DNA from: a virus
DNA: 34,699 bases
Virus record (IMG/VR): IMGVR_UViG_3300018036_000002
Strand: one strand, 5' to 3'
Below the pieces are notes generated by a model. The model had not been told where the DNA came from. It was given only the letters and a program-made list of their open reading frames with translations, and ran no database searches. This document shows, one piece after another, positions 1-11,451 of this stretch. Within the stretch, counting starts at the first letter, position 1, and the number at the start of each line of letters is the position of its first letter. The position numbers and the translations under genes were made by a program.

Positions 1-123
1 GACCTATGATAAGGACAAGAATGGCGTTATCGATTCGGATGAGCTTGCTCTTATTGAACTTGAGGATCGCCGTCGTAAGATGGAAGATGAGGACGCTCAA
101 AGAGATTCGATCAGGAAGATGGC
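1..123. repeat. Terminal direct repeat, exact copy of 34577-34699. Either a circular-assembly overlap or genuine terminal redundancy.
   Basis: Bases 1-123 (gacctatgataaggacaag...gaagatggc) are identical to 34577-34699 by direct comparison. The reading frame continues across the junction. Confidence 0.95.
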
Positions 124-307
124 GTGGTTTGCGCTCTTTGGTTTACTGCTTTATCCCAGTGGTATTTTTATATGTAGTCTTGTCGGACTTGATAAAGCGG
201 CTAGCCTTATCACTGACATCGCAGGGACATACTTCATAGCAGTGTCCGCCCTTGTTGCTAGTTTCTTCGGAGCCAGCGCATATCAATCAAGGGGGACTAG
301 CAAGTGA
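2..307 (+). CDS. 3' part of a wrap-around gene that starts at 34560: small membrane protein with an N-terminal EF-hand loop, in the lysis cassette.
   Basis: Frame of ORF 80..307 is open from base 2 and continues the ORF starting ATG 34560. Two hydrophobic segments are present (WFALFGLLLYPSGIFICSLVGL and YFIAVSALVASFFGA). Confidence 0.7.
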   Translation, partial: TYDKDKNGVIDSDELALIELEDRRRKMEDEDAQRDSIRKMAWFALFGLLLYPSGIFICSLVGLDKAASLITDIAGTYFIAVSALVASFFGASAYQSRGTSK

Positions 308-681
308 TACAGGCATTGTTGCCCATGATTGGGGATATCGCTGGAGGCTGGATCAAAGGCAAGGCTGAAGAGAAAGCCGCCGCGTCTAAAGCCAGGGTCG
401 CCAAGGCTGAAGCTGAAGCTGAGGTGATGAAGGTTGCCGCTACGCACGAGGCGTCTTGGGAAAAGATCATGGCCCAGGGTTCTAACGAATCATGGAAAGA
501 TGAGGCGTGGACCGTGTGCTTCATCGTGATAATTTCTATGTGCTTCATTCCGCACACACAGCCGTATGTTGCTAGAGGGTTTGAGGTCTTATCCACCACG
601 CCTGATTGGTTTCAGTGGGCAGTGTACGCAAGCATCGCGGCAAGCTTTGGTTTGCGTGGAATGAAGGGGCTGAAGAAGTAA
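304..681 (+). CDS. Holin-like membrane protein, resembling the amphipathic N-terminus plus TM architecture of GTA-type 3TM holins.
   Basis: GTG start overlaps the upstream stop (GTGA) and has an AGGGGGA SD 7 nt upstream. The N-terminus is Ala/Glu/Lys-rich and helical, followed by hydrophobic segments AWTVCFIVIISMCFIP and WFQWAVYASIAASFGL. It lies immediately upstream of the lysozyme gene. Confidence 0.5.
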   Translation: MIQALLPMIGDIAGGWIKGKAEEKAAASKARVAKAEAEAEVMKVAATHEASWEKIMAQGSNESWKDEAWTVCFIVIISMCFIPHTQPYVARGFEVLSTTPDWFQWAVYASIAASFGLRGMKGLKK

Positions 682-1119
682 GTGAGGTATATGGATATGG
701 ACGTAGATAAGTTAAAAGACCAACTAATTCTACATGAAGGCTTAGAGCTAAAGAGTTACCAATGCAGTGCAGGATTCATAACGCTCGGGGTCGGGCGCAA
801 CGTCGAAGAGTTAGGCATCACCGAAGACGAAGCCAGATACCTTTTGGACAACGACATACTGAGAGTGACCAAGGAACTGGACGACAACCTCCCGTGGTGG
901 AGGGACCTGAGCGAAGTACGCCAGAGAGTCCTAGTTGATATGGTATTCAATCTCGGCATCAGTCGCTTCCTGAATTTTAAAAACGCTATCGCCGCGGCAC
1001 AAGATGAGCGGTGGGAAGACTGTGCGTCAGAAATGTTGAATAGTCGTTGGGCAGACCAAGTAGGACAGCGAGCTACACGCCTGGCGACTGCAATGGTTGA
1101 AGATACGCTGGAGGTTTGA
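682..1119 (+). CDS. Endolysin, T4-type lysozyme (glycoside hydrolase family 24).
   Basis: HEGLELKSYQCSAGFITLGVGRN aligns to T4 lysozyme [22 protein letters not shown]. The catalytic Glu and Thr are present and Cys occupies the Asp20 position. Start is ambiguous (GTG 682, ATG 691 or ATG 697). Confidence 0.85.
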   Translation: MRYMDMDVDKLKDQLILHEGLELKSYQCSAGFITLGVGRNVEELGITEDEARYLLDNDILRVTKELDDNLPWWRDLSEVRQRVLVDMVFNLGISRFLNFKNAIAAAQDERWEDCASEMLNSRWADQVGQRATRLATAMVEDTLEV

Positions 1120-1120
1120 C

Positions 1121-1264
1121 ATGAGTCTTTACGAGAACATGAATAAGCGCAAGAAGAAAGGCACATCGCGCCCTGCGAGTGAGTCAACGATTAGCGATAA
1201 GACTTACTCTATGATGCGGCGCAAGACCGGCGGGTTTAAGAAGAAGGATAAGGACAATGGCTAG
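1121..1264 (+). CDS. Small, highly basic hypothetical protein (47 aa, MSLYENMNKRKKKGTSRPASE...).
   Basis: ATG lies 1 nt after the lysozyme stop. The frame is open for 47 codons and overlaps the next ATG (ATGGCTAG). It is below the ORF-track cutoff and was found by reading the sequence. Confidence 0.4.
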   Translation: MSLYENMNKRKKKGTSRPASESTISDKTYSMMRRKTGGFKKKDKDNG

Positions 1265-1550
1265 CTCTCCTGCATGGACTCGCAAGGAAGGCAAGAACCC
1301 AAAGGGTGGGCTGAACCAAAAGGGACGGGACTCTTATAAGGGTGGCACCCTAAAGGCGCCCGTAAAGAAAGGTGACAACCCGCGTCGCGCTAGCTTCCTT
1401 GCAAGGATGGGCAACATGAAGGGGCCGGAAAAGAAGAACGGTGAGCCAACAAGATTGCTCTTGTCACTCAGAGCCTGGGGAGCATCAAGCAAAGCTGACG
1501 CCCGTGCAACAGCAAGGGCTATCAGCAAACGGAATGAAGCCAAAGGTTAG
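1257..1550 (+). CDS. Basic Lys/Gly-rich hypothetical protein (97 aa).
   Basis: ORF with ATG overlapping the upstream small ORF. Sequence AWTRKEGKNPKGGLNQKGRDSYKGGTLKAPVKKGDNPRRASFLARM. It is the last gene of the plus-strand late operon. Confidence 0.5.
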   Translation: MASSPAWTRKEGKNPKGGLNQKGRDSYKGGTLKAPVKKGDNPRRASFLARMGNMKGPEKKNGEPTRLLLSLRAWGASSKADARATARAISKRNEAKG

Positions 1551-1819
1551 CGCATCCATCTAGGGGCGCAGGTTACATCTACTACGATCGATGTAGGCCT
1601 TCCGTTAATTGCTCTCTTTGTCCATATCGGAACGGCACGGAGACCTGATGTCTCGCACTCCTTGATAGCATCAATAGTTTCTGATCTCGACATCGCATAC
1701 AGCGTGTCCTCTAATACCAAAGTTTGATTTGGCGTTTCGCTCGTAGGCTTAGACGCCCCGCTAAAAGCGGAGCATCCTTGCACTGCGGCGCATATGAGCA
1801 TGATTGTAATCATCTTCAT
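1547..1819 (-). CDS. Putative lipoprotein (signal peptide plus lipobox), last gene of leftward early operon 1.
   Basis: N-terminus MKMITIMLICAAVQGCSAF has a hydrophobic core and a lipobox-like AVQG-C. ATGA start/stop overlap with the upstream ORF. There is no C-terminal TM, so it is not a unimolecular spanin. Confidence 0.6.
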   Translation of the reverse strand: MKMITIMLICAAVQGCSAFSGASKPTSETPNQTLVLEDTLYAMSRSETIDAIKECETSGLRAVPIWTKRAINGRPTSIVVDVTCAPRWMR

Positions 1820-1986
1820 TTTTTGCTCCGACTATCTGTGTTAAGTACAGCGTCTGGGTTGCGCAGGAATATTGACTGATTCTGAGGCTTCTTCCTGTGT
1901 TCAATGTCGAGCCTATGAATGTCCATCCTGTTTGCAATCCACGCCTGCCTCAATAGTTTACGCCAGTGATGTCCAGCTTGACCCAT
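1816..1986 (-). CDS. Small hypothetical protein (56 aa, MGQAGHHWRKLL...).
   Basis: Of three in-frame ATGs, only the one at 1986 has a strong SD (AAGGTGGGG, 3 nt spacer). The stop overlaps the lipoprotein start (ATGA). Confidence 0.4.
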   Translation of the reverse strand: MGQAGHHWRKLLRQAWIANRMDIHRLDIEHRKKPQNQSIFLRNPDAVLNTDSRSKK

Positions 1987-2317
1987 TGTCCCCACCTTGA
2001 TTCCTAGCCTGCGGTTGCTGTCGCTCTTGCGGCTCATTCACATAAAGGTCTGCATAGCATGTCGCCGGGAATGCTTTGACATCACCCCCAGGAATGCGCT
2101 TCTTGATTGTCATCTGTAGTTGCATGCCGTTGTCATGCATCAGTTTATGAATCTGATCAACGATAGCCTCCTGCTCTGGGGTCATCGGATTCCTGCGACG
2201 GGACGCTTCGTCCCATCCGTTATCCAATTGCAACCAGCACTGCACCTGATAGGTTTCGTTAGCTGGCATGTCGGCTTTAAGTTTCACTTCGGCTTTTGAT
2301 ATCTGCGCTCTTGGCAT
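1958..2317 (-). CDS. Hypothetical protein in the recombination module (119 aa). It may be a ssDNA-binding accessory, but this is unproven.
   Basis: The track ORF 1958..2479 is trimmed to ATG 2317 (MPRAQISKAEVKLK...), which has an AAGGAGAG SD 5 nt upstream and lies just downstream of the annealing-protein stop. Confidence 0.55.
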   Translation of the reverse strand: MPRAQISKAEVKLKADMPANETYQVQCWLQLDNGWDEASRRRNPMTPEQEAIVDQIHKLMHDNGMQLQMTIKKRIPGGDVKAFPATCYADLYVNEPQERQQPQARNQGGDNGSSWTSLA

Positions 2318-2333
2318 GATGCTCTCTCCTTTG

Positions 2334-3086
2334 TTAGAACGGTATGTCGTCTTCTGTGTTTGGGTTAGGTAATGGGGCTGGGGTTGGGTCGTCGTTTGGG
2401 GCTGGTGCCCCACCATCACTCGGAACCTCTCCTTCTCCTGGGGACTCAGTAATCTTCCCCGCTCTCTCCTTGACAGCATTTTTAACTAACTCCGCGTTGG
2501 CTTTGTTTTGTTTTTCAAACTGCTCAAGTTTGTTGGCGTTTGCGGCCAGCCACCCTTGCAGTTCTCCTTGTGTCTGAATGTTATTCACCTGGCGAATGTA
2601 GTCCTCCGCCAGTTCAGCGCCAGTGCGTACGTTCGCGACTGGAGCAGGTTTTGCTGTGCGCTTGCTGTTCTCCTCCTTTGCTTTCTCTTTGCGCCCGACT
2701 CCATCAAGCTCATTTGCGCTGGCATACTCCCCACCGCTGAGACCGATAGCACTGAGCGCCCTACCGATTGCAGAAGTTTCGCAGTTCTCTATGGCTGAAG
2801 TCTTATTGACTAAGCCTACGTCGCGCAATTCTTCTGCATGCCCTGTGCCGAGAGTGACCGAGGGCGAGTCAATAGTATGGATGATCGCCTTAACAACGAC
2901 GCGAGTGCCGTCATCGATAAGTATCTGTGTCGAGACACCAACGTCCAACCCGTGATGTTCGCGCAATGCTTCCATTCGATGGACAACCTGCGTGTATAAC
3001 TTGCCGCCTTTCTGCGTAACGCCATGCGTCTTGTTCAGTTCAGCAACGTGGGCCATTGTGTCAGCCCACTTCTTTCTAGTCTCCAT
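2334..3086 (-). CDS. Single-strand annealing protein (Rad52/Erf superfamily) with an SSB-like disordered linker and an acidic EDDIPF C-terminal tip.
   Basis: ENCETSAIGRALSAIGLSG aligns with the Rad52/Sak motif (TDxLKRALxxFG). Start ATG 3086 overlaps the upstream TAA (TAATG). The C-terminus is ...PAPNDDPTPAPLPNPNTEDDIPF. Confidence 0.6.
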   Translation of the reverse strand: METRKKWADTMAHVAELNKTHGVTQKGGKLYTQVVHRMEALREHHGLDVGVSTQILIDDGTRVVVKAIIHTIDSPSVTLGTGHAEELRDVGLVNKTSAIENCETSAIGRALSAIGLSGGEYASANELDGVGRKEKAKEENSKRTAKPAPVANVRTGAELAEDYIRQVNNIQTQGELQGWLAANANKLEQFEKQNKANAELVKNAVKERAGKITESPGEGEVPSDGGAPAPNDDPTPAPLPNPNTEDDIPF

Positions 3087-4021
3087 TATTCGATGCTCCA
3101 TATTGATCGTGCTTCTTGTAAATATCCCTCTGGAGCGTTCCATCCTAGGTTATCCCAATCGGGATAGACCAAAGATAGCAACTCGTGAGGGGTTCTTGCG
3201 GCCTTCAACATATTCTCAGTGATACGATTCATCAGCCTTATCTGCTTCACAACTTCCTCCAGATACTCTGGCTTCAATTGATCGCAGTTATCTTGGTTTA
3301 AGATTCTGTAGTCATCTTTGTTTGCGTATAGTAGCCACACCGGCTTGCGTCCATTGATCTCCCATCCACCGGCGACCTGATAGACGTTCGCAATATCGAA
3401 GCGACCACTCAGATCTTTGGGTAAATTGTTATTAGCGAACCCACTCTTAGTCCGTGAGTTGCGGGTAGACCATTTAGTTTTGAGGTCACCTACTCCTGCA
3501 TAGTCAGGCAGGTTCTTGTGCCCAAGCTCATTCCCAGGCAGTGCCCCGTATAACTCTGTCTCTCCGAAGATCTCCGAGCCAGCCATCACTTCCCGCAAAC
3601 CAGCTAGTGCGCTCTGTATCACGCCCTCTAGCTCAGTCTCATACTGCGTCCACTTTGCGGCGTCGATGCCGTCATCCCAATCGCGTGGGATGTACTTCAT
3701 GTACTGTTGATAAGTAGACGCCATAACTTCTGCGGGGTCTTTACGTTCAAGCAGGATTGCATCACATGCAGACTGAACCAGCCTGCCGCATAGCATGTTG
3801 GCATTGTCTGAACCATTGTATCCTTGATCCAGCCGGTAGATAACTTCCCATGCCTGTTCTTGTTGCACGTTATCAGAGTCCGGATTCTTGATGACCTCCC
3901 AGGCGCCCCTTACTTTAGGACGGACCACGCATTTATCGAAGAACACTTTCGCTTGGTCGCGGTTCTTCATGTTGGAATGCCAGAAATAATTGTGGCGTCT
4001 CGCCCAATCAGGGATGATCAT
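3086..4021 (-). CDS. PD-(D/E)XK-type nuclease-like protein, the probable exonuclease partner of the annealing protein.
   Basis: LPDYAGVGDLKTK fits the PD...(D/E)xK motif, with upstream acidic residues (GETE). It is translationally coupled to the SSAP gene, the classic exo + SSAP arrangement. Confidence 0.5.
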   Translation of the reverse strand: MIIPDWARRHNYFWHSNMKNRDQAKVFFDKCVVRPKVRGAWEVIKNPDSDNVQQEQAWEVIYRLDQGYNGSDNANMLCGRLVQSACDAILLERKDPAEVMASTYQQYMKYIPRDWDDGIDAAKWTQYETELEGVIQSALAGLREVMAGSEIFGETELYGALPGNELGHKNLPDYAGVGDLKTKWSTRNSRTKSGFANNNLPKDLSGRFDIANVYQVAGGWEINGRKPVWLLYANKDDYRILNQDNCDQLKPEYLEEVVKQIRLMNRITENMLKAARTPHELLSLVYPDWDNLGWNAPEGYLQEARSIWSIE

Positions 4022-4410
4022 GACTGAACCCCCGTACCATGAAGCTCTTCAATTAGCTTTCTAACATATGCTTTGGACTTCATCCGCCTTGGTTTATTAG
4101 CTGACGATGCGCTACCTGCAGATACCTTGCGCACGTTTCTGTTGTGTCGCTCTGTCGGTTGCACCTGCACCGGAGCCAGCACTTCTTGGTAAAAGTTTTG
4201 GAGCGCGAGCCGCATTCTATTGTTGCGAATCCTGTACAACTTACGGACCTTAGCTTCAGTCAAGCTGTAGCGTTTAGCAACTGACGCAATGGGTTCGCCT
4301 CTGTCAACTAAATCACAGATACGACCGATAGCCCCTAGGATATCAGAGACTACCCGATCAACGTGGTGGTCCTCCGTGGCGTGTCTGATTAAATCTAAAT
4401 ACTGATGCAT
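4018..4410 (-). CDS. Putative HTH DNA-binding protein.
   Basis: AGGTG SD lies 4 nt upstream of the ATG. The segment PIASVAKRYSLTEAKVRKLYRIRN looks like a sigma-region-4/HTH unit, and the C-terminal half is basic. Confidence 0.5.
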   Translation of the reverse strand: MHQYLDLIRHATEDHHVDRVVSDILGAIGRICDLVDRGEPIASVAKRYSLTEAKVRKLYRIRNNRMRLALQNFYQEVLAPVQVQPTERHNRNVRKVSAGSASSANKPRRMKSKAYVRKLIEELHGTGVQS

Positions 4411-4418
4411 ATTTCACC

Positions 4419-4670
4419 TCACAAATTGCTAATGATTTCTTTTTTTACATGCACGATAACGCTCGTGTACCACCCAGGCGCTCGGTCATAAATGATCTCT
4501 ATGTGCCTGGGGTATTTCTCTAAGGCAGTATCGAAAAACTTGGCGAAACTATGTGACCCCCCGTAATACACGAAGGAATGTTTGATCTCAGGTACGGTAG
4601 TGTACGCGCCGAAGTTTGCGTTAATTGCCGCAACCATCGCTCGCATTTGTACACGAAAACTTCCCTGCAT
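4419..4670 (-). CDS. Hypothetical protein (83 aa), first gene of leftward early operon 1.
   Basis: ORF next to the divergent promoter region. The SD is weak. Confidence 0.5.
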   Translation of the reverse strand: MQGSFRVQMRAMVAAINANFGAYTTVPEIKHSFVYYGGSHSFAKFFDTALEKYPRHIEIIYDRAPGWYTSVIVHVKKEIISNL

Positions 4671-4732
4671 AATTTCAAAATCCCACGCTTACATATAGTG
4701 TCTTAGAAAAATACTTGGTCAGCGTATTCTTG

Positions 4733-4761
4733 TTGACGTATCATGTCAACCATCGATAAAA
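4733..4761 (+). promoter_or_regulatory. Sigma70-like rightward early promoter with an overlapping palindromic operator.
   Basis: TTGACG (4733-4738), a 17-nt spacer, then ATAAAA (4756-4761). The inverted repeat TTGAC-gtatcat-GTCAA spans 4733-4749. The 10-mer TGTTGACGTA (4731-4740) recurs on the minus strand at 9240-9231. Confidence 0.55.
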
Positions 4762-4801
4762 GTCTGATTCATCGTGACGCAGACTGAAACAGGATGGGAC
4801 A

Positions 4802-5017
4802 ATGACACTAGATCAATGGCGCAAAAAACGAGGGTATAGCTACCGGGCATTAGCTCAAATGATAGGGGCTTCTCATGCTTCTGTGGTTCGCAGATGGTGT
4901 ATGGACTTGGATGATGATGACTTCATGATTCCGAAAACGAAGTACATGCTGGTCATTTTGGAGGTCACAGCGGGCGAGGTACAGCCAAACGATTTCTACA
5001 TTCGGAGGTCGAAGTGA
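4802..5017 (+). CDS. Cro/XRE-like HTH regulator.
   Basis: YSYRALAQMIGASHASVVRRW is a typical helix-turn-helix. It is a small first gene divergent from an early operon. Confidence 0.6.
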   Translation: MTLDQWRKKRGYSYRALAQMIGASHASVVRRWCMDLDDDDFMIPKTKYMLVILEVTAGEVQPNDFYIRRSK

Positions 5018-5415
5018 GCGGTGTCAATGGCAGAAACAAGGGGGCCGCGTTTGAACGGCAGATTGCGGGCATGTTGCGTGATCAATTGGGCATCGACTGC
5101 AAGCGCAATTTGATGCAGACGGCAGAAGGTGGTCACGATTTGATTGGTTTGCCGGGGTTCGCGATCGAGTGCAAGCGATACGCTGTGATCAGTCACGGAA
5201 AATTAGACAAGTTCTGGGCGCAATGTGTCTCACAGGCACAGAGAGTCGATCTAACGCCATGTTTGATTGTGAAAGGTGATAGACAGCCGGTCAGAGTTTT
5301 CATCCCTTGGAGCGGCTTAGGTTGGGACGCTTATCAGTGGGACAATTTTAATTGTGCGGCTGAAATTTCGTTTGAATTATTTTGCGCAATCGTTCGCGAA
5401 GGGTTGACCAAATAA
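5014..5415 (+). CDS. Hjc-like PD-(D/E)XK Holliday junction resolvase/endonuclease.
   Basis: GTG start with a GGAGG SD 5 nt upstream. The sequence KGAAFERQIAGMLRDQLG ... GHDLIG ... FAIECK matches the archaeal-type Hjc pattern (KGxxFE ... D ... ExK). Confidence 0.55.
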   Translation: MSGVNGRNKGAAFERQIAGMLRDQLGIDCKRNLMQTAEGGHDLIGLPGFAIECKRYAVISHGKLDKFWAQCVSQAQRVDLTPCLIVKGDRQPVRVFIPWSGLGWDAYQWDNFNCAAEISFELFCAIVREGLTK

Positions 5416-5452
5416 TCTAAAAGCATTACGCTCCGCTTGCGGTCCCGGAGGG

Positions 5453-5523
5453 GTACGTGTTCAGAACACGTACGTGTTAAGCATGTACGTGTTACTAAAC
5501 ACTTTCTTATTCAAAACACTTTC
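5453..5523. repeat. Iteron-like cluster: GTACGTGTT x3 and AAACACTTTC x2, giving six GTGTT/AACAC cores in 71 nt.
   Basis: GTACGTGTT occurs at 5453, 5470 and 5485. AAACACTTTC occurs at 5497 and 5514. The perfect palindrome ACGTGTTC-A-GAACACGT spans 5455-5471. No ORF overlaps. Confidence 0.8.
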
Positions 5524-5571
5524 AATGCACGTGCTATGCACTGTCTCAAATTCTGTGGATAACTTTCAGGC

Positions 5572-5596
5572 AAAAAAAAGCCCGGCGAACCGGGCT
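5572..5596 (-). terminator. Rho-independent terminator ending the ribozyme-punctuated leftward operon.
   Basis: The minus strand reads AGCCCGG-ttcg-CCGGGCT followed by TTTTTTTT. On the plus strand the same hairpin lacks a U tract. Confidence 0.8.
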
Positions 5597-5617
5597 GAAG
5601 ACACACAGGGGAGTGTG

Positions 5618-5800
5618 TTAGATAGTCAGTGAGTGACGATACACGATCGCCATCACTGTTCCAAAGTGTTTTTGATTGGGTCTAACCGCACGATACCCCT
5701 GATGAGTGCGGCTAATGTGCATCACGCTCAGATGATTGCGGAGCATGATTGATTTTGCATCCGCTAGCGCATCTAGCGGATTGAGTTTGAATCCAAACAT
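5618..5800 (-). CDS. Possible small ORF (60 aa) at the 3' end of the operon. Weak call.
   Basis: AAGGA lies 6 nt upstream of the ATG. It overlaps the upstream gene by 28 nt and lacks the conserved ribozyme/leader unit. Confidence 0.3.
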   Translation of the reverse strand: MFGFKLNPLDALADAKSIMLRNHLSVMHISRTHQGYRAVRPNQKHFGTVMAIVYRHSLTI

Positions 5801-6180
5801 GGATTGTCCTTGAGCCTGTATTGGGCAAATCGTTTGCCGTTATGTTTAATCATGGTCGAGGTGATATTGTATCCCCTTCCTCTCAGATCATAAATGCGAG
5901 CAGACAATCGCATACAGCCAATTTCCATCGTGGATTCCCACTGAGTGATTGAACCATTGCGTTTCATGAATGCCAAAATAAGGTCGCATTGAGCGCCCTT
6001 GGTTTGCTCCTCGGTTGAGTCGAAGTCTTCAGACGGATCGATTGTACGAACGATCGCTGATAGTGCGGCAGGGCCGCTCTCCATTGTGCGTTCTGCGAAA
6101 TCGTCTGCCGCATTTTTGCTTTCAGCATAAAAAGTGACAGTCCCGCCGTCAGAATATTCAACGTCGATTGCGTGCTTCAT
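5773..6180 (-). CDS. Protein with a C-terminal winged-helix DNA-binding domain (phage HTH_39-like).
   Basis: CDLILAFMKRNGSITQWESTMEIGCMRLSARIYDLRGRGYNI matches the common phage wHTH pattern (...GI.RLSARI.DLR..G..I). It is preceded by the conserved leader GGGGAAAUACAAU-AUG. Confidence 0.65.
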   Translation of the reverse strand: MKHAIDVEYSDGGTVTFYAESKNAADDFAERTMESGPAALSAIVRTIDPSEDFDSTEEQTKGAQCDLILAFMKRNGSITQWESTMEIGCMRLSARIYDLRGRGYNITSTMIKHNGKRFAQYRLKDNPCLDSNSIR

Positions 6181-6200
6181 ATTGTATTTCCCCTTGATGT

Positions 6201-6262
6201 GCGACCTGTCTTATCAATACGGGTAGGTCACATCCCGTAGACCGGGCGAACCCGGTTTCGAC
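6201..6262 (-). ncRNA. Hammerhead ribozyme A (type II, U3:A8 core variant).
   Basis: RNA: GUC GAAA CCGGG-UUCG-CCCGG UC|UACGGG-AUGUGACCUA-CCCGUA UUGAUAA GAC AGGUCGC. Stem II is GAC/GUC. The tail AGGUCGC pairs with loop I GUGACCU. Predicted cleavage is after C at 6240. The G of the upstream UAG stop is part of stem II. Confidence 0.8.
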
Positions 6263-6630
6263 TATGCAAGATGGTTCAAGTGGTGACGCTTGAGCAACCC
6301 AAACAAATATTTTGTCGAGCTTTCTAGCTCATCACCAAACACTCTGAACTCTGTGTGCAGTACGCACTCTTCCATGAACATTGGGACAAAGTCACAGTCG
6401 AAGGGTTCATCATAATCAAGCTCATCCTTGACCATGTTGTAGACCTGTTCGCATGACACAGCCAACTCTGAGATCTTGTCTCTTGTATGAGCCATGCCGT
6501 GCTGTCTTCTGAACGCCTTCAAATCGTGATCGTCGTCCAATTCTTGGAAGTATTCATTGATGACCTGCGCTGTGAACAGCAGTTGGTCAGCCTGAATTCC
6601 GCATACTTTTTCATTAAGAATATTTTCCAT
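6262..6630 (-). CDS. Acidic hypothetical protein (122 aa, MENILNEKVCG...).
   Basis: The track ORF is trimmed to ATG 6630, which follows the conserved leader. The extra 10 upstream codons read through ribozyme B. Confidence 0.65.
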   Translation of the reverse strand: MENILNEKVCGIQADQLLFTAQVINEYFQELDDDHDLKAFRRQHGMAHTRDKISELAVSCEQVYNMVKDELDYDEPFDCDFVPMFMEECVLHTEFRVFGDELESSTKYLFGLLKRHHLNHLA

Positions 6631-6648
6631 TGTATTTCCCCTATGTGA

Positions 6649-6715
6649 TTGCCCTGACATCGTCAGATCGGGTAAGGCAAGGTTCCCGATGACGCACCCG
6701 GAGGTGCGTTTCGTC
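6649..6715 (-). ncRNA. Hammerhead ribozyme B (type II, extra U after A9, flipped stem II).
   Basis: RNA: GAC GAAA CGCACC-UCCG-GGUGCG UC|AUCGGG-AACCUUGCCUUA-CCCGAU CUGACGA U GUC AGGGCAA. Stem II is GUC/GAC, compensatory relative to the other copies. The tail AGGGCAA pairs with loop I UUGCCUU. Cleavage is after C at 6691. Confidence 0.75.
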
Positions 6716-7176
6716 TATGCAAAAAGCTCATCAAATTCAGCAACCTGAATTGATAGAACCGATGTGGCTTTGTTGTCGAGACCAATGATGACCTCGATCG
6801 CACGGCCTTGGTTGCTATGCCAGACAGCGGTCAGTCCGGCATCTTCAAGATCATGCACCAGTTGCTGTGCATGCATGTGCATCTGCGCTTCCCGGCGGTC
6901 ACCTTTCGGATACCACGGGAAATTAACGTAAATCTGAAAGCCGTTGGTCTCTAGATCATTCGCCAGCACACTGTCGCTCCAGTCCGCATGCGATTCAGTC
7001 CAGAAATAGCATGGTTGGTTAAGCTCCTCCATGCGGGCTTTGAACTCCTTGAGCATAGATTTGTTGAGACCTACGCGGGCAGAGACTTTACGCTTGGGCC
7101 TGCTGTCACGCATGACACTTTTGAAAGTTTCATACTGAGCCGCCTTGATACGCTGAATGATTTTCATGTGATTCAT
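6715..7176 (-). CDS. Hypothetical protein (153 aa, MNHMKIIQRIKAAQ...).
   Basis: Trimmed to ATG 7176 after the conserved leader. The longer track ORF (to 7377) reads through ribozyme C and into the next gene. Confidence 0.65.
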   Translation of the reverse strand: MNHMKIIQRIKAAQYETFKSVMRDSRPKRKVSARVGLNKSMLKEFKARMEELNQPCYFWTESHADWSDSVLANDLETNGFQIYVNFPWYPKGDRREAQMHMHAQQLVHDLEDAGLTAVWHSNQGRAIEVIIGLDNKATSVLSIQVAEFDELFA

Positions 7177-7195
7177 AATGCTTCCCCTGTGTGTG

Positions 7196-7261
7196 TCATC
7201 CTGTCTAATCATGCCGGGTAGGATGAGGTTCCCGACGACACACCCGAAGGTGTGTTTCGAC
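7196..7261 (-). ncRNA. Hammerhead ribozyme C (type II, A3:U8 core variant).
   Basis: RNA: GUC GAAA CACACC-UUCG-GGUGUG UC|GUCGGG-AACCUCAUCCUA-CCCGGC AUGAUUA GAC AGGAUGA. There is a perfect 7-bp pseudoknot (AGGAUGA/UCAUCCU). Cleavage is after C at 7237. Activity of the A3:U8 core is uncertain. Confidence 0.7.
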
Positions 7262-7501
7262 TCAAAGGCAAATGCGTATACGTTCGATGGTGTGCTTGCC
7301 GCGTACCAGCCGGTGATCGACTTTGACGCGACGGCCAACGAAGGCATGCCAGTCATGCGCTTGCACCCAATTGGCATTGCAGGGTGTGTAAAAGCACTCT
7401 GCTGTGCCGGGCTTGTTACCGATCAATAGCATCCAACGTGGGTTGCCATTACGTGTGTTCAGTTCGCGTGATACTTGCAGTACGTTTGCATGTGTTTCCA
7501 T
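7262..7501 (-). CDS. Hypothetical protein (79 aa, METHANVLQVSRELN...).
   Basis: Trimmed to ATG 7501 after the conserved leader GGGGAAAUAUC-AUG. Confidence 0.6.
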   Translation of the reverse strand: METHANVLQVSRELNTRNGNPRWMLLIGNKPGTAECFYTPCNANWVQAHDWHAFVGRRVKVDHRLVRGKHTIERIRICL

Positions 7502-7520
7502 GATATTTCCCCTGTATGTG

Positions 7521-7584
7521 CCACCCTGTCTTATCAATACAGGTAGGGTGAGATTCCTGTAGACGCCCCGGAGGGCGTTTCGAC
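7521..7584 (-). ncRNA. Hammerhead ribozyme D (type II, U3:A8 core variant).
   Basis: RNA: GUC GAAA CGCCC-UCCG-GGGCG UC|UACAGG-AAUCUCACCCUA-CCUGUA UUGAUAA GAC AGGGUGG. The tail AGGGUGG pairs with loop I UCACCCU. Cleavage is after C at 7562. Confidence 0.8.
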
Positions 7585-7931
7585 TATGCCATTTCAACCG
7601 TTTCTTCTGTCACGTACTTGCATGTGTATGTGACCTCATCGCCTTTGAATCTATCGAACACCTTGAAGTGCTTAGCGACAAATCGAAACTCGATATCTTT
7701 ACGGCCTCGATACGCATGTTCATTTTGAAACTGCCAGTTGACAGCTTTGAGATACCCAACGTCGAAATCATCGTCTGGACTCGGTTCAGCGTCGAATGTT
7801 CCACCGGGATGTGACACCCGTTGAACTTCAAGCATCGGTATCCATTGTGATGTCTTCCATTCAGACCACTTGCGGCCCTCTTTTTTGCGGTATTGACATG
7901 CATATGAATTGGCTTGGATTAGATTTTCCAT
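7584..7931 (-). CDS. Hypothetical protein (115 aa, MENLIQANSYACQYRKK...).
   Basis: Trimmed to ATG 7931 after the conserved leader. The upstream extension reads through ribozyme E. Confidence 0.65.
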   Translation of the reverse strand: MENLIQANSYACQYRKKEGRKWSEWKTSQWIPMLEVQRVSHPGGTFDAEPSPDDDFDVGYLKAVNWQFQNEHAYRGRKDIEFRFVAKHFKVFDRFKGDEVTYTCKYVTEETVEMA

Positions 7932-7950
7932 TGTATTTCCCCTGTGTTGA

Positions 7951-8013
7951 GATACCTGTCTCATCAGTGCCGGGAGGTAAACCCCGGTCAGACGGGCCGA
8001 AGCCCGTTTCGAC
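7951..8013 (-). ncRNA. Hammerhead ribozyme E (type II, canonical core).
   Basis: RNA: GUC GAAA CGGGC-UUCG-GCCCG UC|UG(A)CCGGG-GUUUACCU-CCCGGCA CUGAUGA GAC AGGUAUC. The tail AGGUA pairs with loop I UACCU. Cleavage is after C at 7991. Confidence 0.85.
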
Positions 8014-8274
8014 TTATGCAGTTGTGATGCCCTCAGCAATGTAAATTCGGTTGAGGGTAAGCACTAGATCATGCTTGGTATCAGCGCGGGCGATGACTTT
8101 GGTGAAGCCGTCCGCATTGCGTATCGATGTGTCTTTGGCAAGCCACCGACCTCCAACTTTTAAAACGGAGATGTGTTCGTTGCCTTTGACAACCCATTCT
8201 GCTGAGTCTGTTCCCATGCCGTTTCCAAGCCATTCTGTAGACTTAGTTTTGGTCAGCTTGATGTAGTTTTTCAT
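8014..8274 (-). CDS. Hypothetical protein (86 aa, MKNYIKLTKTKSTEW...).
   Basis: Trimmed to ATG 8274 after the conserved leader GGGGAAUACAAA-AUG. Confidence 0.6.
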   Translation of the reverse strand: MKNYIKLTKTKSTEWLGNGMGTDSAEWVVKGNEHISVLKVGGRWLAKDTSIRNADGFTKVIARADTKHDLVLTLNRIYIAEGITTA

Positions 8275-8292
8275 TTTGTATTCCCCTGTGTT

Positions 8293-8354
8293 TGAGATGT
8301 CTTCATCAGACCGTGGTCTCTCACACCACGATGACGGGCAAGGCCCGTTTCGAC
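8293..8354 (-). ncRNA. Hammerhead ribozyme F (type II, extra A after A9).
   Basis: RNA: GUC GAAA CGGGC-CUU-GCCCG UC|AUCGUGG-UGUGAGAGA-CCACGGU CUGAUGA A GAC A UCUCA. The tail UCUCA pairs with loop I UGAGA. Cleavage is after C at 8333. Confidence 0.75.
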
Positions 8355-8441
8355 TTAGTACCAATCGGTTGACCGTAGGACCGCCCATGCAAGGATGGTG
8401 ATGCCCCAAAGGATCAAGAAGGTTTCTTCTGCGCCAGTCAT
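8355..8441 (-). CDS. Micro-ORF: 28-aa hydrophobic peptide (MTGAEETFLILWGITILAWAVLRSTDWY).
   Basis: Found by reading the sequence. The ATG overlaps the upstream micro-ORF stop (TGATG), and the TAA stop abuts ribozyme F. Confidence 0.45.
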   Translation of the reverse strand: MTGAEETFLILWGITILAWAVLRSTDWY

Positions 8442-8515
8442 CAGATCACCTCCCAGAACTTGAGAGTGCCAAATGCGAAAGCCGCGCTAAATGAAAGAAT
8501 GATTAATAGTTCCAT
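8441..8515 (-). CDS. Micro-ORF: 24-aa hydrophobic peptide (MELLIILSFSAAFAFGTLKFWEVI).
   Basis: It is preceded by the same conserved leader as the larger ORFs (ACACAGGGGAAUACAC-AUG). It occupies a ribozyme-delimited slot between copies G and F. Confidence 0.5.
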   Translation of the reverse strand: MELLIILSFSAAFAFGTLKFWEVI

Positions 8516-8532
8516 GTGTATTCCCCTGTGTG

Positions 8533-8595
8533 TTGCCCTGTCTCATCAGTGTGGGTAGGGCGTGATCCCACAGACCGCCCGGAGGCGGTTTCGAC
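8533..8595 (-). ncRNA. Hammerhead ribozyme G (type II, canonical core).
   Basis: RNA: GUC GAAA CCGCC-UCCG-GGCGG UC|UGUGGG-AUCACGCCCUA-CCCACA CUGAUGA GAC AGGGCAA. The tail AGGGC pairs with loop I GCCCU. Cleavage is after C at 8573. Confidence 0.85.
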
Positions 8596-8958
8596 TTATG
8601 CGCTTTCAATCAGCTTTCTGATTTTCTTGATGACTTTGCGTTCTGCTTCAGCCATTTTTTTGTTGCCGTACGCGATGGCTTCTTGAGGTGTTTTAAATGA
8701 TTTGGCGCGAGGTGCTTGTCCGAATCTTTCACCGTTCCGTTCATTTCTCAGAAACACTGTAAAATCCCTTGGAACGAAATCTTCAGGTCTGACCCAACAC
8801 CGCTTTGACCATTCCGCATTCTCGTCTTTGGTGTAGTCAAACTGCCAAACCAAAAAACTGAATCCGATGACTCTGCCTTGAGCATCTCGCAATCCAAATT
8901 CTTTGCTTTCTTCAGCGACAATTTTTTCTTCACGTGAACATGTAATTAAGTTAGTCAT
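8596..8958 (-). CDS. Hypothetical protein (120 aa), first cistron of the ribozyme-punctuated operon.
   Basis: ATG 8958 follows the conserved leader ACACAGGGGAAUACACA-AUG. Confidence 0.65.
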   Translation of the reverse strand: MTNLITCSREEKIVAEESKEFGLRDAQGRVIGFSFLVWQFDYTKDENAEWSKRCWVRPEDFVPRDFTVFLRNERNGERFGQAPRAKSFKTPQEAIAYGNKKMAEAERKVIKKIRKLIESA

Positions 8959-8966
8959 TGTGTATT

Positions 8967-9031
8967 CCCCTGTGTGTTTCGCGGATACTGCCGCTCATCA
9001 GTCAGGCTGGTTGCCTGAGACACTAGGGGGG
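8967..9031 (-). ncRNA. Hammerhead ribozyme H (type III topology, canonical core). Its stem III contains the SD of the first cistron.
   Basis: RNA: CCCCCCU-A-GUGUC|UCAGGC-AACCA-GCCUGA CUGAUGA GCGG-CAGUAU-CCGC GAAA CAC-AC-AGGGG. Stems I and II are closed hairpins. Stem III is open (GUGU/ACAC plus CCCCU/AGGGG). Cleavage is after C at 9019. Confidence 0.8.
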
Positions 9032-9207
9032 AAAGTTAACTGGTTGGTGCGTGATGCGAATGCTTGAGTGAGACCTTGCTGAATCAGCGGAACCCCGAAG
9101 GCGCTGAAACCATCCGGAAACCAGAAGCACCGTCAAGGCGCAGACCAGATAACCAGTAAGCAGGTTTTTAAAGAGCTTTGAACCGGGGCCGCCGATCCGT
9201 TGAGAAC

Positions 9208-9240
9208 ATTATAATCATAGTGTGACGCATTACGTCAACA
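9208..9240 (-). promoter_or_regulatory. Candidate leftward early promoter plus palindromic operator driving the ribozyme operon.
   Basis: The minus strand reads TGTTGACGTAatgcgtcacactatgatTATAAT. The -35 TTGACG is at 9238-9233 and TATAAT is at 9213-9208, with a long 19-nt spacer. The inverted repeat TGACG-taatg-CGTCA overlaps the -35. Confidence 0.5.
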
Positions 9241-9306
9241 CCTATGTGAAATTTTTTTTGAGGGGTACACTGTCAAGTGCGCGGAAGCGTGATGTTCCCT
9301 CACTTG

Positions 9307-9331
9307 CCCCGGCGCAGACCGGGGACTTTTT
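9307..9331 (+). terminator. Rho-independent terminator-like hairpin immediately upstream of the terS SD.
   Basis: CCCCGG-cgcaga-CCGGGG followed by acTTTTT, ending 2 nt before the AGGAGA SD of the 9344 ORF. Confidence 0.6.
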
Positions 9332-9343
9332 AGGAGAGACGAT

Positions 9344-9748
9344 GTGGCACGAAAGGAACGAGTAAGCAAAGCGCAGATGAAGCGCATTTGTGATGAGCTA
9401 TGCGATGGGCGATCGCTAACCAAGATTTGTCAGGCGGATGAGTTGCCATCGTGGCGCACTGTGCTCCGCTGGGTCCAAGAGGATGAAGATGCCCACGAGA
9501 TGTATCGGAAGGCCAGAGCGTTGCAGGCAGAGATTTTGCGCGACCAGATTATTGATTTAGTCGAACAGCCGCTCCCGGACGATCCAAAGCTCGCACAAGC
9601 AGAGGTCCAGCGTAGACGACTTGAAGCTGATCAAAAGGACAAGTATGTGAGACAGCTTGCTCCGTTGGGTATTCGCAATAAGGCTGTCGATACTAAGGAT
9701 CAAATGAGTGGCACGATCACTCTTAAATGGAATGATGCTGAGAGCTAA
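9344..9748 (+). CDS. terS: Terminase small subunit (HTH type).
   Basis: ICDELCDGRSLTKICQADELPSWRTVLRWVQEDEDAHEMYRKARALQAE matches the common TerS N-terminal HTH pattern (I...I..G.SL..IC...P....V..W......Y..A...QA). GTG start with AGGAGA 7 nt upstream; an alternative ATG is at 9377. Confidence 0.7.
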   Translation: MARKERVSKAQMKRICDELCDGRSLTKICQADELPSWRTVLRWVQEDEDAHEMYRKARALQAEILRDQIIDLVEQPLPDDPKLAQAEVQRRRLEADQKDKYVRQLAPLGIRNKAVDTKDQMSGTITLKWNDAES

Positions 9749-10167
9749 TATAAGGCTCTGTGAGCGGACTTTGCATAAATGGCACATGTTTGTGCCATGT
9801 TTGGTACAGGTTCTGAAGCAGGGCTTTGAGTGAAGCGAGAGAGATAAGGTCAATGATGATGCGGGATAGAGAGATTGGACTGGCTGAAATGACACATATA
9901 GTAAGTGCTGTGTGGCAGTGGTCTCGCGCACGAGGCTTGAAGGCATGAAGAGATCCGACAACCATGCCCTCCGATTTAACATAATCTACGTTATGCGACA
10001 CGGACGTTCTAGGATTCATGCGGGTTCCAGCCTTTCGATCGCACCGTTCAGCTACCGATCGGCCACGATCGACACCCGGTCGCAAAAGAAAATTGGACCG
10101 ACCCAGTCCCCGCCAGACGCCGCGCCGATACATAGCGTATAACTCACCTGTACAGGAGTGTCTTACA
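9749..10167 (+). other. About 420 nt of apparently noncoding, hairpin-rich spacer between terS and terL.
   Basis: There is no convincing ORF or SD in any frame. Hairpin ATGGCACA-tgtt-TGTGCCAT lies at 9780-9799 and GGCATG...CATGCC at 9942-9968. There are three CGATCG palindromes within 36 nt (10036-10071). Confidence 0.6.
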
Positions 10168-11451
10168 TTGACTGAGATCCACATTCCATATAGCCCAAGG
10201 CCACTGCAGAGAAAACTCCATGACGCTCTTCGCGATAAACGATGGGGTGTCGTAGTGTGTCATCGTCGATTTGGCAAAACGGTCATGGCGATCAACCATT
10301 TGCTTCGTGACGCGATCTTGACGGACAAGGCGAACCCCAGGTATGCGTACATTGCGCCGACGTACAGGCAGGCTAAGAACGTGGCCTGGGACTATTTAAA
10401 GCAGTTTGGGGGCGCGATCCCTATGGTGAGGTTTCATGAGACCGAATTACGTTGCGATTTGCCAAATGGCGCTCGGATTCAATTGCTCGGCGCGGAGAAC
10501 CCTGATTCGCTTCGTGGCATTTACCTTGATGGAGCCGTGCTCGACGAGATGGCAGACATGCCGGAGTCCTTGTTTCCGGAAATTATTAGACCTGCGTTAT
10601 CAGATCGTAAGGGGTGGGCCGTCTTCATTGGGACGCCCCGTGGTCATAATGCGTTCTTTGAATTGTATGAAGCCGCCACTGGACAGCAAGATTGGTTCAC
10701 GCAGGTATATAAGGCCAGCCAGACTGGGATCTTGGACGACGAGGAACTATCAGCCGCCCAAGCAATGATGTCGCATGATCAGTTTGAACAAGAGTTTGAG
10801 TGCTCATGGGTTGCAAACGTGCCGGGGGCTATTTTCGGGAAAGAGTTACAGGAGGCCCAGGAGAAGGGGCGCATCACTGAGATACCTTACGATGAGGGTT
10901 ACCGGGTTGATACCTGGTGGGATTTGGGGGTTGGAGACTCGACCGCTGTCTGGTTTACCCAAACGATTGGGCGAGCTATCTATGTAATTGACTTCTACGA
11001 AAACCGGAATGAGGGCTTGCCGCATTACGCTGGGGTGCTTCAACAGAAGGGATATCTTTACGGGACGCACAATGCCCCGCATGATATTGAGGTCAGGGAA
11101 CTTGGGTCCGGGAAGTCCAGACGAGAGATTGCTTACGACCTTGGGATTAATTTCCGGGTTGTTCCGAAGCTTCCTTTGGAGGATGGAATCCATGCGGCTC
11201 AATTGTTGCTGGCTAGATGCTCATTCGACCGGGCAAGGTGTAAGGAAGGCCTGGAGTGTTTACGCCACTACCACCGGGCTTATAATGAGAAGGCTCGATC
11301 GTTCCGGGCAACGCCGGTACATGATTGGAGTTCCCACGGTGCCGATGCCTTTAGGTATCTTGCCGTAGGGTTGCGAGAAAGTAGACAATACGAGCGTCCG
11401 CCGCAAATGATCGCGGACTCAAACTATAATCCACTAGGAGTTAGTCTGTAA
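10168..11451 (+). CDS. terL: Terminase large subunit.
   Basis: Walker A-like CHRRFGKT, Walker B-like GAVLDEMAD and a C-terminal nuclease-like region. The proposed TTG start at 10168 has an AGGAG SD 9 nt upstream. The ORF is open back to ATG 10018, but that extension is Arg/Pro/Ser-rich and looks like noncoding read-through. Confidence 0.8.
   Translation: MTEIHIPYSPRPLQRKLHDALRDKRWGVVVCHRRFGKTVMAINHLLRDAILTDKANPRYAYIAPTYRQAKNVAWDYLKQFGGAIPMVRFHETELRCDLPNGARIQLLGAENPDSLRGIYLDGAVLDEMADMPESLFPEIIRPALSDRKGWAVFIGTPRGHNAFFELYEAATGQQDWFTQVYKASQTGILDDEELSAAQAMMSHDQFEQEFECSWVANVPGAIFGKELQEAQEKGRITEIPYDEGYRVDTWWDLGVGDSTAVWFTQTIGRAIYVIDFYENRNEGLPHYAGVLQQKGYLYGTHNAPHDIEVRELGSGKSRREIAYDLGINFRVVPKLPLEDGIHAAQLLLARCSFDRARCKEGLECLRHYHRAYNEKARSFRATPVHDWSSHGADAFRYLAVGLRESRQYERPPQMIADSNYNPLGVSL

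Follow-up and report, generated by a model that had tools for sequence, protein, structure and literature searches.

The 34,699-nucleotide IMG/VR virus record IMGVR_UViG_3300018036_000002 (the window, by which we mean this whole stretch of DNA) carries seven short repeated units between genes of its minus strand. They raise the question of what such units do there, and whether the complementarity that each contains between a hairpin loop and its 3′ tail reflects a working RNA structure. The units, which we name A to G by rising coordinate, are each ~66-71 nt long and lie between positions 6198 and 8596. A preliminary description had read them as type II hammerhead ribozymes in which the tail beyond stem II pairs with the loop of stem I. 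Our analysis, which rests on sequence comparison, leads to a similar view: the seven units are very probably type II hammerhead self-cleaving ribozymes with a loop I/tail pseudoknot, positioned as intercistronic elements of one phage operon, and we assign this reading a probability of about 85%. The pseudoknot itself has been known since 2011, when it was described as part of the type II consensus (Perreault et al. 2011, PLoS Comput Biol 7:e1002031, PMC3088659), and what the locus provides is seven previously unannotated copies of it.

Each unit is laid out, from 5′ to 3′, as A-GUC-GAA-[stem III hairpin, A...U]-C-[stem I hairpin]-CUGAUGA-GAC-tail. The Rfam model for type II hammerheads, RF02276, matches six of the seven copies, with F above the gathering score of 37 and B, E and G within 2 bits of it; the low scores are due to substitutions at core positions 3 and 8 together with the long loop I. 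A MAFFT alignment of all seven copies placed F wrongly, and we used instead a covariance model built from six copies, with the remaining sequences aligned by the model. Searched with filters off against the whole window, this model finds exactly seven copies, at 37-84 bits, and the next match scores 11 bits. GAAA, the A15.1-U16.1 pair and the GUC cleavage site are present in all seven, and B, E, F and G have a CUGAUGA or CUGACGA core. Two copies contain one extra nucleotide between A9 and G10.1, a U in B (6659-6666) and an A in F (8302-8309); insertions of this kind, in the form CUGAUGA-U-GAC or CUGAUGA-U-GGC, recur in many external copies (alignment A4).

Loops close stems I and III, and both stems appear in the minimum-free-energy fold of every copy, with stem III capped by UUCG or UCCG, or by a CUU triloop in F. 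Stem II is open and 3 bp long, formed by GUC and GAC except in B, where the strands are swapped to GAC/GUC and an A-U pair thus becomes U-A. Across the copies 100% of cells are paired in stems II and III and 95.2% in stem I, and changes on both sides of a pair are found at one of three pairs in stem II, four of six in stem III and five of six in stem I. When all helices are taken together (22 pairs), 95.9% of cells are paired and 14 pairs show double-sided changes, values that none of 500 shuffles reached.

The complementarity between the stem II tail and the stem I loop is present in all seven copies (Table 1), with helices of 8, 7, 7, 7, 5, 5 and 5 bp from A to G. By parsing each copy we re-derived every pairing given in the preliminary description, which had overlooked only a G-U pair, and a possible eighth pair, in copy A. 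Two of its generalizations need qualification. The stem II strand immediately before the helix was said to read GAC-A, as it does in most copies, but in B it is GUC and in F the helix begins one nucleotide (A) after GAC. Likewise AGG/CCU, said to be the only conserved part of the helix, is common to six copies and fully replaced in F, as claimed, except that the loop strand of B has CUU in place of CCU.

That the remaining positions change together, as had also been claimed, is confirmed by two lines of evidence from within the window. The first is that matching is specific to each copy. When all seven tails were combined with all seven loops, only one of the 5,040 permutations (the true one) reached the observed total duplex energy, and only two reached the observed helix length; when the 10-nt tail was shuffled within each copy, the observed helix was matched in 21 to 1471 of 20,000 trials, depending on the copy. 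The second is covariation in the model-based alignment, for which column shuffles and column slides served as controls and in which the loop of copy F falls into insert columns, so that F was judged separately. The pseudoknot columns are 90.5% paired, compared with 31-43% when the partner strand is slid by one to three columns, and four of the seven pairs show double-sided changes. For covariation the columns score 0.435, whereas shuffles give 0.170±0.058 and none of 500 reaches the observed value.

The signal persists when homologues are added, the outcome on which the preliminary description had staked its claim of covariation. We scanned IMG/VR with a descriptor that fixes only GTCGAAAC...GTC...CTGATGAGAC and leaves loop and tail unconstrained. 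The exhaustive scan of the at least 120 contigs concerned gave at least 205 type II hammerheads, and 182 distinct ones outside the window, on 109 contigs, are among the matches listed; the figures that follow for external ribozymes refer to these listed matches. In 88% of the 182, the first 10 nt past stem II pair without interruption over 4 bp or more with loop I of the same ribozyme, and in 57% over 5 bp or more; for four control segments from the same RNAs the corresponding figures are 13-20% and 2-4%. The helices use 93 different tail-side sequences, and when tails were swapped among the external ribozymes the observed mean helix length or energy was never reached in 200 trials. In an alignment of 146 sequences fitted to the nested stems only, the pseudoknot scores 0.230 for covariation against 0.086±0.007 (0 of 500 shuffles reach 0.230), and GC, AU, CG and UA pairs are all numerous at its central positions.

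Orthologous copies tell the same story at the level of single pairs. The eighth pair of copy A, which is U-A in the window, is C-G in the related contig L212; the G-U pairs of both A and D become A-U in L207, and that of A does so in L212 too. Pseudoknots on similar scaffolds in a further contig, L231, read AGGAUC/GAUCCU, AGGAUCG/CGAUCCU and AGGACCG/CGGUCCU. A correlation between pseudoknot-to-core length and the tail-side linker (rho 0.67) was left unused as partly trivial, because a one-pair shift in the start of the helix moves both lengths together.

Several observations weigh against the reading of all seven units as active pseudoknotted ribozymes. The 3-bp stem II lies outside the minimum-free-energy fold of every copy, and in the folds of A and D its 5′ strand pairs with core nucleotides instead. 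A, C and D are without the consensus C3 and G8, score ~24 bits or lower with Rfam, and in the case of A are absent from the Rfam list; the natural variants that Perreault et al. (2011) tested do not include the A3-U8 combination seen in copy C. On the covariation side, the scan pattern fixes GTCGAAAC...CTGATGAGAC, and the external set therefore samples one sub-family, while the stricter measures were weak on the six window sequences (the observed number of double-change pairs was reached in 46 of 500 shuffles and that of further pair types in 37 of 500) and not significant, which is why the homologues were needed.

The cores of A, C and D deserve particular attention, since they invite the alternative that these copies are catalytically dead relics, kept as hairpins or recombination repeats, and that the array makes fewer than seven cuts. 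Their cores (UUGAUAA in A and D, AUGAUUA in C) and Rfam scores would fit such a history, and changes to the core usually lower activity (Perreault et al. 2011). We nevertheless consider it unlikely, because in the three copies the core departs from the consensus solely at positions 3 and 8, which change as a pair, C3-G8 being replaced by U3-A8 in A and D and by A3-U8 in C. The 3-8 pair is kept by covariation more widely. An IMG/VR scan that allowed A or U at both positions yielded 28 cores of the U..A and 10 of the A..U kind (around half of the A..U matches look like real hammerheads), whereas U..U was absent and the one A..A match does not resemble a hammerhead. The orthologues of copy D in L207 and L212 have identical stems and a CUGAAGA core with C3...G8, and an A3-U8 core is found again at L231:6681, in an independent contig, where the stems differ and the pseudoknot covaries. 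The pseudoknots of A, C and D are moreover the longest and cleanest of the set and their stems are intact, and natural covariation of C3-G8 to U3-A8, with active variants, has been documented (Perreault et al. 2011).

All four helices covary, as does the C3-G8 core pair, and selection for activity, proposed in the preliminary description, is thus a reasonable inference from the sequences, with the proviso that the cores of A, C and D depart from the consensus. The 2011 survey reported U3-A8 as the sole 3-8 variant in nature. We tentatively suggest that A3-U8, unreported there, may be a natural alternative to C3-G8 that retains function; our literature search for A3-U8 found nothing among open-access papers, which is weak evidence of absence. 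The U3-A8 and A3-U8 cores sit on otherwise matched scaffolds and offer material with which to gauge how far the identity of the 3-8 pair matters.

A different alternative accepts the pairing as real and places its main job after cleavage, or independently of it, where it would supply the downstream mRNA with a compact 5′ structure that blocks decay from the 5′ end or shields the ribosome-binding site from sequence upstream, with the 7-8-bp helices of A to D tuned for stability. The closeness of the tail's end to the Shine-Dalgarno sequence (3-7 nt) and the conservation of hammerhead plus ribosome-binding site as a block would agree with this, as would the prevalence of long helices (7-8 bp in four of the seven window copies, at least 7 bp in only nine of the 182 external ribozymes). 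Both strands of the pseudoknot are on the 3′ cleavage product, and the pseudoknot can for this reason outlast cleavage. Published mutagenesis, however, found the pseudoknot to be required for catalysis in a type II hammerhead: its truncation or mutation lowered k_obs by 20- to >100-fold at 0.5 mM Mg2+, and a compensatory mutant restored the rate (Perreault et al. 2011). We therefore judge a mainly post-cleavage function improbable, noting that the two roles are not mutually exclusive. Finally, that the complementarity is a mere leftover of repeat duplication or a product of chance, without structural role, would suit the nature of the units as paralogous ~95-nt repeats (73-84% identical in cross-matches between units) and the 3 bp that the shared AGG/CCU gives for free in six of seven copies, but is very hard to sustain when the variable positions differ among copies yet stay complementary, F has a wholly different sequence pair, orthologues carry compensatory exchanges and the same helix recurs in ribozymes of unrelated context but not in controls or with swapped tails.

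The preferred reading, of active type II hammerheads with a working pseudoknot, can be compared with what is known of related ribozymes. The pairing is the published type II pseudoknot needed for fast cleavage at low Mg2+, as the preliminary description had recognized (Perreault et al. 2011). The window copies share with the ribozymes of RF02276 the core, the partners and position of the pseudoknot and its length of at least 4 bp, as well as the genomic habit of several copies flanking single genes in phage or prophage DNA, and nothing in them is different in kind. The details particular to the window are the four 7-8-bp helices, the three U3-A8 or A3-U8 cores, the two copies with an additional nucleotide between A9 and G10.1, and the single copy above the gathering score. 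Extended hammerheads of the Schistosoma and sTRSV types have the same core and the same need for parallel stems I and II at low Mg2+, but achieve this with non-Watson-Crick contacts and a closed stem II loop, whereas the window copies have no stem II loop and their contact is a regular helix. A hammerhead whose core is likewise stabilized by a Watson-Crick pseudoknot rather than by loop-loop contacts is seen in PDB 8YDC, in which G8 pairs with C3 and the 2′-OH of G8 is the general acid (Zhan et al. 2024, Nat Commun 15:6628). There, however, a pseudoknot that involves the loop of an added hairpin (helix IV) takes the place of helix II in a pistol-like fold, while the window copies have a 3-bp helix II, the stem I loop as partner and no helix IV between core and tail. 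We rejected 8YDC as a model for the contact in the window on account of this different topology.

The genome that carries the array is that of a marine podophage. It is podovirus-like, with genes for terminase, portal, major head, tail tube, internal virion and tail spike proteins, and of lytic type; its structural genes resemble those of HTVC010P-type pelagiphages, the portal protein being ~60% identical to portals of that type (a similarity at the protein level only). A megablast search of the operon and structural region against GenBank phages gave no nucleotide match. The ribozymes are intercistronic modules of one minus-strand operon, which runs from a promoter match to a terminator-like hairpin (~9238-5572) and has one probable type III hammerhead in its leader followed by the seven type II units, making eight ribozymes in ~3.4 kb (Table 1). 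Eight cistron groups are parted by the ribozymes in the order G, F, E, D, C, B, A. Nearly all of the genes are ORFans, encoding proteins of 24-153 aa, and Pfam and PHROGs searches of the flanked genes gave matches for the 135-aa and 79-aa proteins only.

Table 1. Positions of the ribozymes, signals and cistrons of the minus-strand operon in the window. All positions are window coordinates; R1 denotes a covariance model.
Feature	Coordinates	Strand	Score or match	Details
Type II hammerhead A	6198..6263	-	77.6 bits with R1; absent from Rfam list at E<=10	Stem II 6262-6260/6210-6208; stem III hairpin 6256-6241; C17 at 6240, predicted cleavage 6240/6239; stem I 6239-6234/6223-6218; core UUGAUAA 6217-6211 (U3-A8); pseudoknot tail 6207-6200 with loop I 6232-6225, AGGUCGC(A)/(U)GUGACCU, 7-8 bp, one G-U, 8-pair form AGGUCGCA/UGUGACCU
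Type II hammerhead B	6646..6716	-	RF02276, 36.8 bits	C17 at 6691; core CUGACGA plus extra U, 6666-6659; tail 6655-6649 (AGGGCAA) with loop 6680-6674 (UUGCCUU), 7 bp, one G-U
Type II hammerhead C	7193..7262	-	RF02276, 23.9 bits; 76.9 bits with R1	C17 at 7237; core AUGAUUA 7212-7206 (A3-U8); tail 7202-7196 (AGGAUGA) with loop 7226-7220 (UCAUCCU), 7 Watson-Crick bp
Type II hammerhead D	7518..7585	-	RF02276, 23.8 bits; 84.4 bits with R1	C17 at 7562; core UUGAUAA 7537-7531 (U3-A8); tail 7527-7521 (AGGGUGG) with loop 7551-7545 (UCACCCU), 7 bp, one G-U
Type II hammerhead E	7948..8014	-	RF02276, 35.9 bits	C17 at 7991; bulged A in stem I; core CUGAUGA 7967-7961; tail 7957-7953 (AGGUA) with loop 7979-7975 (UACCU), 5 bp, loop strand directly adjoining stem I 3′ strand
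Type II hammerhead F	8289..8355	-	RF02276, 38.7 bits, sole copy above gathering score 37	C17 at 8333; stem I 8 bp, loop 7 nt; core CUGAUGA plus extra A, 8309-8302; spacer A at 8298, then tail 8297-8293 (UCUCA) with loop 8323-8319 (UGAGA), 5 bp
Type II hammerhead G	8530..8596	-	RF02276, 35.0 bits	C17 at 8573; core CUGAUGA 8549-8543; tail 8539-8535 (AGGGC) with loop 8561-8557 (GCCCU), 5 bp
Probable type III hammerhead, operon leader	8967..9031	-	RF00008, 28.4 bits (gathering score 48.5)	
Sigma-70-like promoter match	9211..9238	-	Consensus match only	Upstream of leader hammerhead
Cistron, 120 aa	8958-8596	-		
Cistron, 24 aa	8515-8441	-		Hydrophobic (MELLIILSFSAAFAFGTLKFWEVI)
Cistron, 28 aa	8441-8355	-		Hydrophobic; joined to 24-aa ORF by UGAUG overlap
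Cistron, 86 aa	8274-8014	-		
Cistron, 115 aa	7931-7584	-		
Cistron, 79 aa	7501-7262	-	phrog_20597	PHROG of unknown function
Cistron, 153 aa	7176-6715	-		
Cistron, 122 aa	6630-6262	-		
Cistron, 135 aa	6180-5773	-	PF14090 / phrog_4973	Winged HTH
Cistron, 60 aa	5800-5618	-		
Intrinsic-terminator-like hairpin and U-run	5572..5596	-		Operon end

The type II units are fitted closely to the cistrons on either side. In all seven the upstream stop codon either adjoins the 5′ strand of stem II, as UAA-GUC or UGA-GUC, or shares one nucleotide with it, as UAG-UC (UAG-AC in B); the conserved A that precedes GUC belongs to this stop codon. The predicted cleavage sites are 23-26 nt downstream of the upstream stop codons. 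Every cistron is preceded by the motif CA(G/A)GGGGAA N5-7 AUG, and in the seven units this Shine-Dalgarno block begins 3-7 nt past the end of the pseudoknot. This placement between stop codon and open reading frame (ORF) is general for this type II sub-family. For 164 external copies among the matches listed, an upstream ORF of at least 40 codons ends at the 5′ edge of the ribozyme in 87%, compared with 8% on the opposite strand, and a downstream ORF is present in 92%, starting a median of 23 nt past stem II, compared with 41% on the opposite strand.

The element in the operon leader is a probable type III hammerhead, below the RF00008 gathering score, with a consensus core and three stems at 8971-9026, and its minimum-free-energy fold is the canonical three-way junction (z = -3.09), with predicted cleavage after C9019 (AGUGUC/UCAGGC, the slash marking the site). 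A run of C residues plus U (~9030-9025) lengthens its stem III by pairing with AGGGG (8971-8967), which is the Shine-Dalgarno sequence of the first gene. Since the C-run occupies this sequence, cleavage and release of the fragment could unmask translation. The leader copy and its C-run are kept in L121, L123, L207 and L212, with covariation in stem II, despite the different first genes of these contigs.

Taken together with the literature, the layout suggests how the array might work. In each type II unit the 3′ strand of stem II would lead directly into the 5-8-bp helix with the stem I loop, which would extend stem II and hold stems I and II side by side. The pseudoknot would in this way stand in for the loop-loop contacts of other natural hammerheads and allow cleavage to be fast at physiological Mg2+. 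Cuts by the array would split the polycistronic transcript into mRNAs of one gene each, all with their own stop codon. Each mRNA would end in the stem III hairpin, of UNCG type (CUU triloop in F), with a 2′,3′-cyclic phosphate, and would begin with a 5′-OH, followed by the fold of stem I and pseudoknot and then by a standard ribosome-binding site. More speculatively, a ribosome engaged in termination at the stop codon would sit over stem II and some of stem III, so that folding of the ribozyme and termination would be mutually exclusive at any moment.

There is precedent for cleavage of this kind. Clusters of hammerheads in prophages flank single genes and cut ~2-kb polycistronic RNAs in vitro, and one such cluster cleaves in E. 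coli (Perreault et al. 2011); later literature describes three type II hammerheads that cleave in vivo in Desulfovibrio vulgaris. The prophage clusters of Clostridium scindens, Azorhizobium caulinodans and Agrobacterium tumefaciens (Perreault et al. 2011, Fig. 3) resemble the window array in having several ribozymes that flank genes or short gene blocks of variable identity. The window array differs in that its eight ribozymes lie in the genome of a podophage of lytic type and in that it is confined to the closest relatives. A 2019 review still regarded the biological role of bacterial and phage hammerheads as undefined.

Comparison with related genomes bears on the origin of the array. Two units of the window are missing from L121, the window's closest relative (TerL 96% identical; 86-91% identity at the nucleotide level). 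One consists of the 115-aa gene and one hammerhead (7590-7924), the other of hammerhead F and the two tiny hydrophobic ORFs (8310-8516), and the overlaps in the alignment of the two genomes fall inside the repeated hammerhead/ribosome-binding-site blocks. The gene that precedes the G-like ribozyme in L123 is a different one, and a number of genes there are unrelated to the window's. Because relatives differ by whole gene-plus-hammerhead units and the alignment overlaps lie within the repeats, the comparison suggests recombination at the ribozyme repeats as the means by which cassettes are gained and lost. Of 80 TerL relatives (L121-L200), only two, with TerL at least 91% identical, have type II hammerheads; the other 78 (76-85% identity) have none, although at least 20 of these span the 5-10 kb upstream of TerL, and a search of six relatives that lack type II hammerheads for other Rfam ribozymes gave nothing above gathering thresholds. 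With type II hammerheads confined to the two closest of the 80, the array seems to have been acquired or expanded recently within one small clade. Among the first 120 hammerhead-bearing contigs there is no genomic relative of this phage.

Larger arrays than that of the window exist, as illustrated by L231 (IMGVR_UViG_3300033551_000003), which has at least 10 type II hammerheads in ~11 kb (82-11040). Its pseudoknot variants include AGGACCG, AGGAUCA, AGGAUCG and AACCA, and one of its copies has a U3...G8 core (UUGAAGA).

The pseudoknot finding in itself adds nothing new, since it re-finds a published contact that has been tested by mutation. What the locus offers is a clean natural example of eight ribozymes in one operon, with the type II copies each set between a stop codon and a ribosome-binding site. 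We tentatively suggest, as a possibility that we consider less probable than not on present evidence, that the succession of stop codon, hammerhead, pseudoknot tail and Shine-Dalgarno sequence may form a standardized cassette boundary, which would cut and insulate the mRNAs of ORFan genes, fold under the gating of the ribosome and provide ~95 nt of homology for the gain, loss and reshuffling of accessory genes between closely related phages. If this is true, the operon would be a ribozyme-delimited cassette array. The locus is in any case a convenient system in which to ask what hammerhead cleavage does for gene expression in phages and bacteria.

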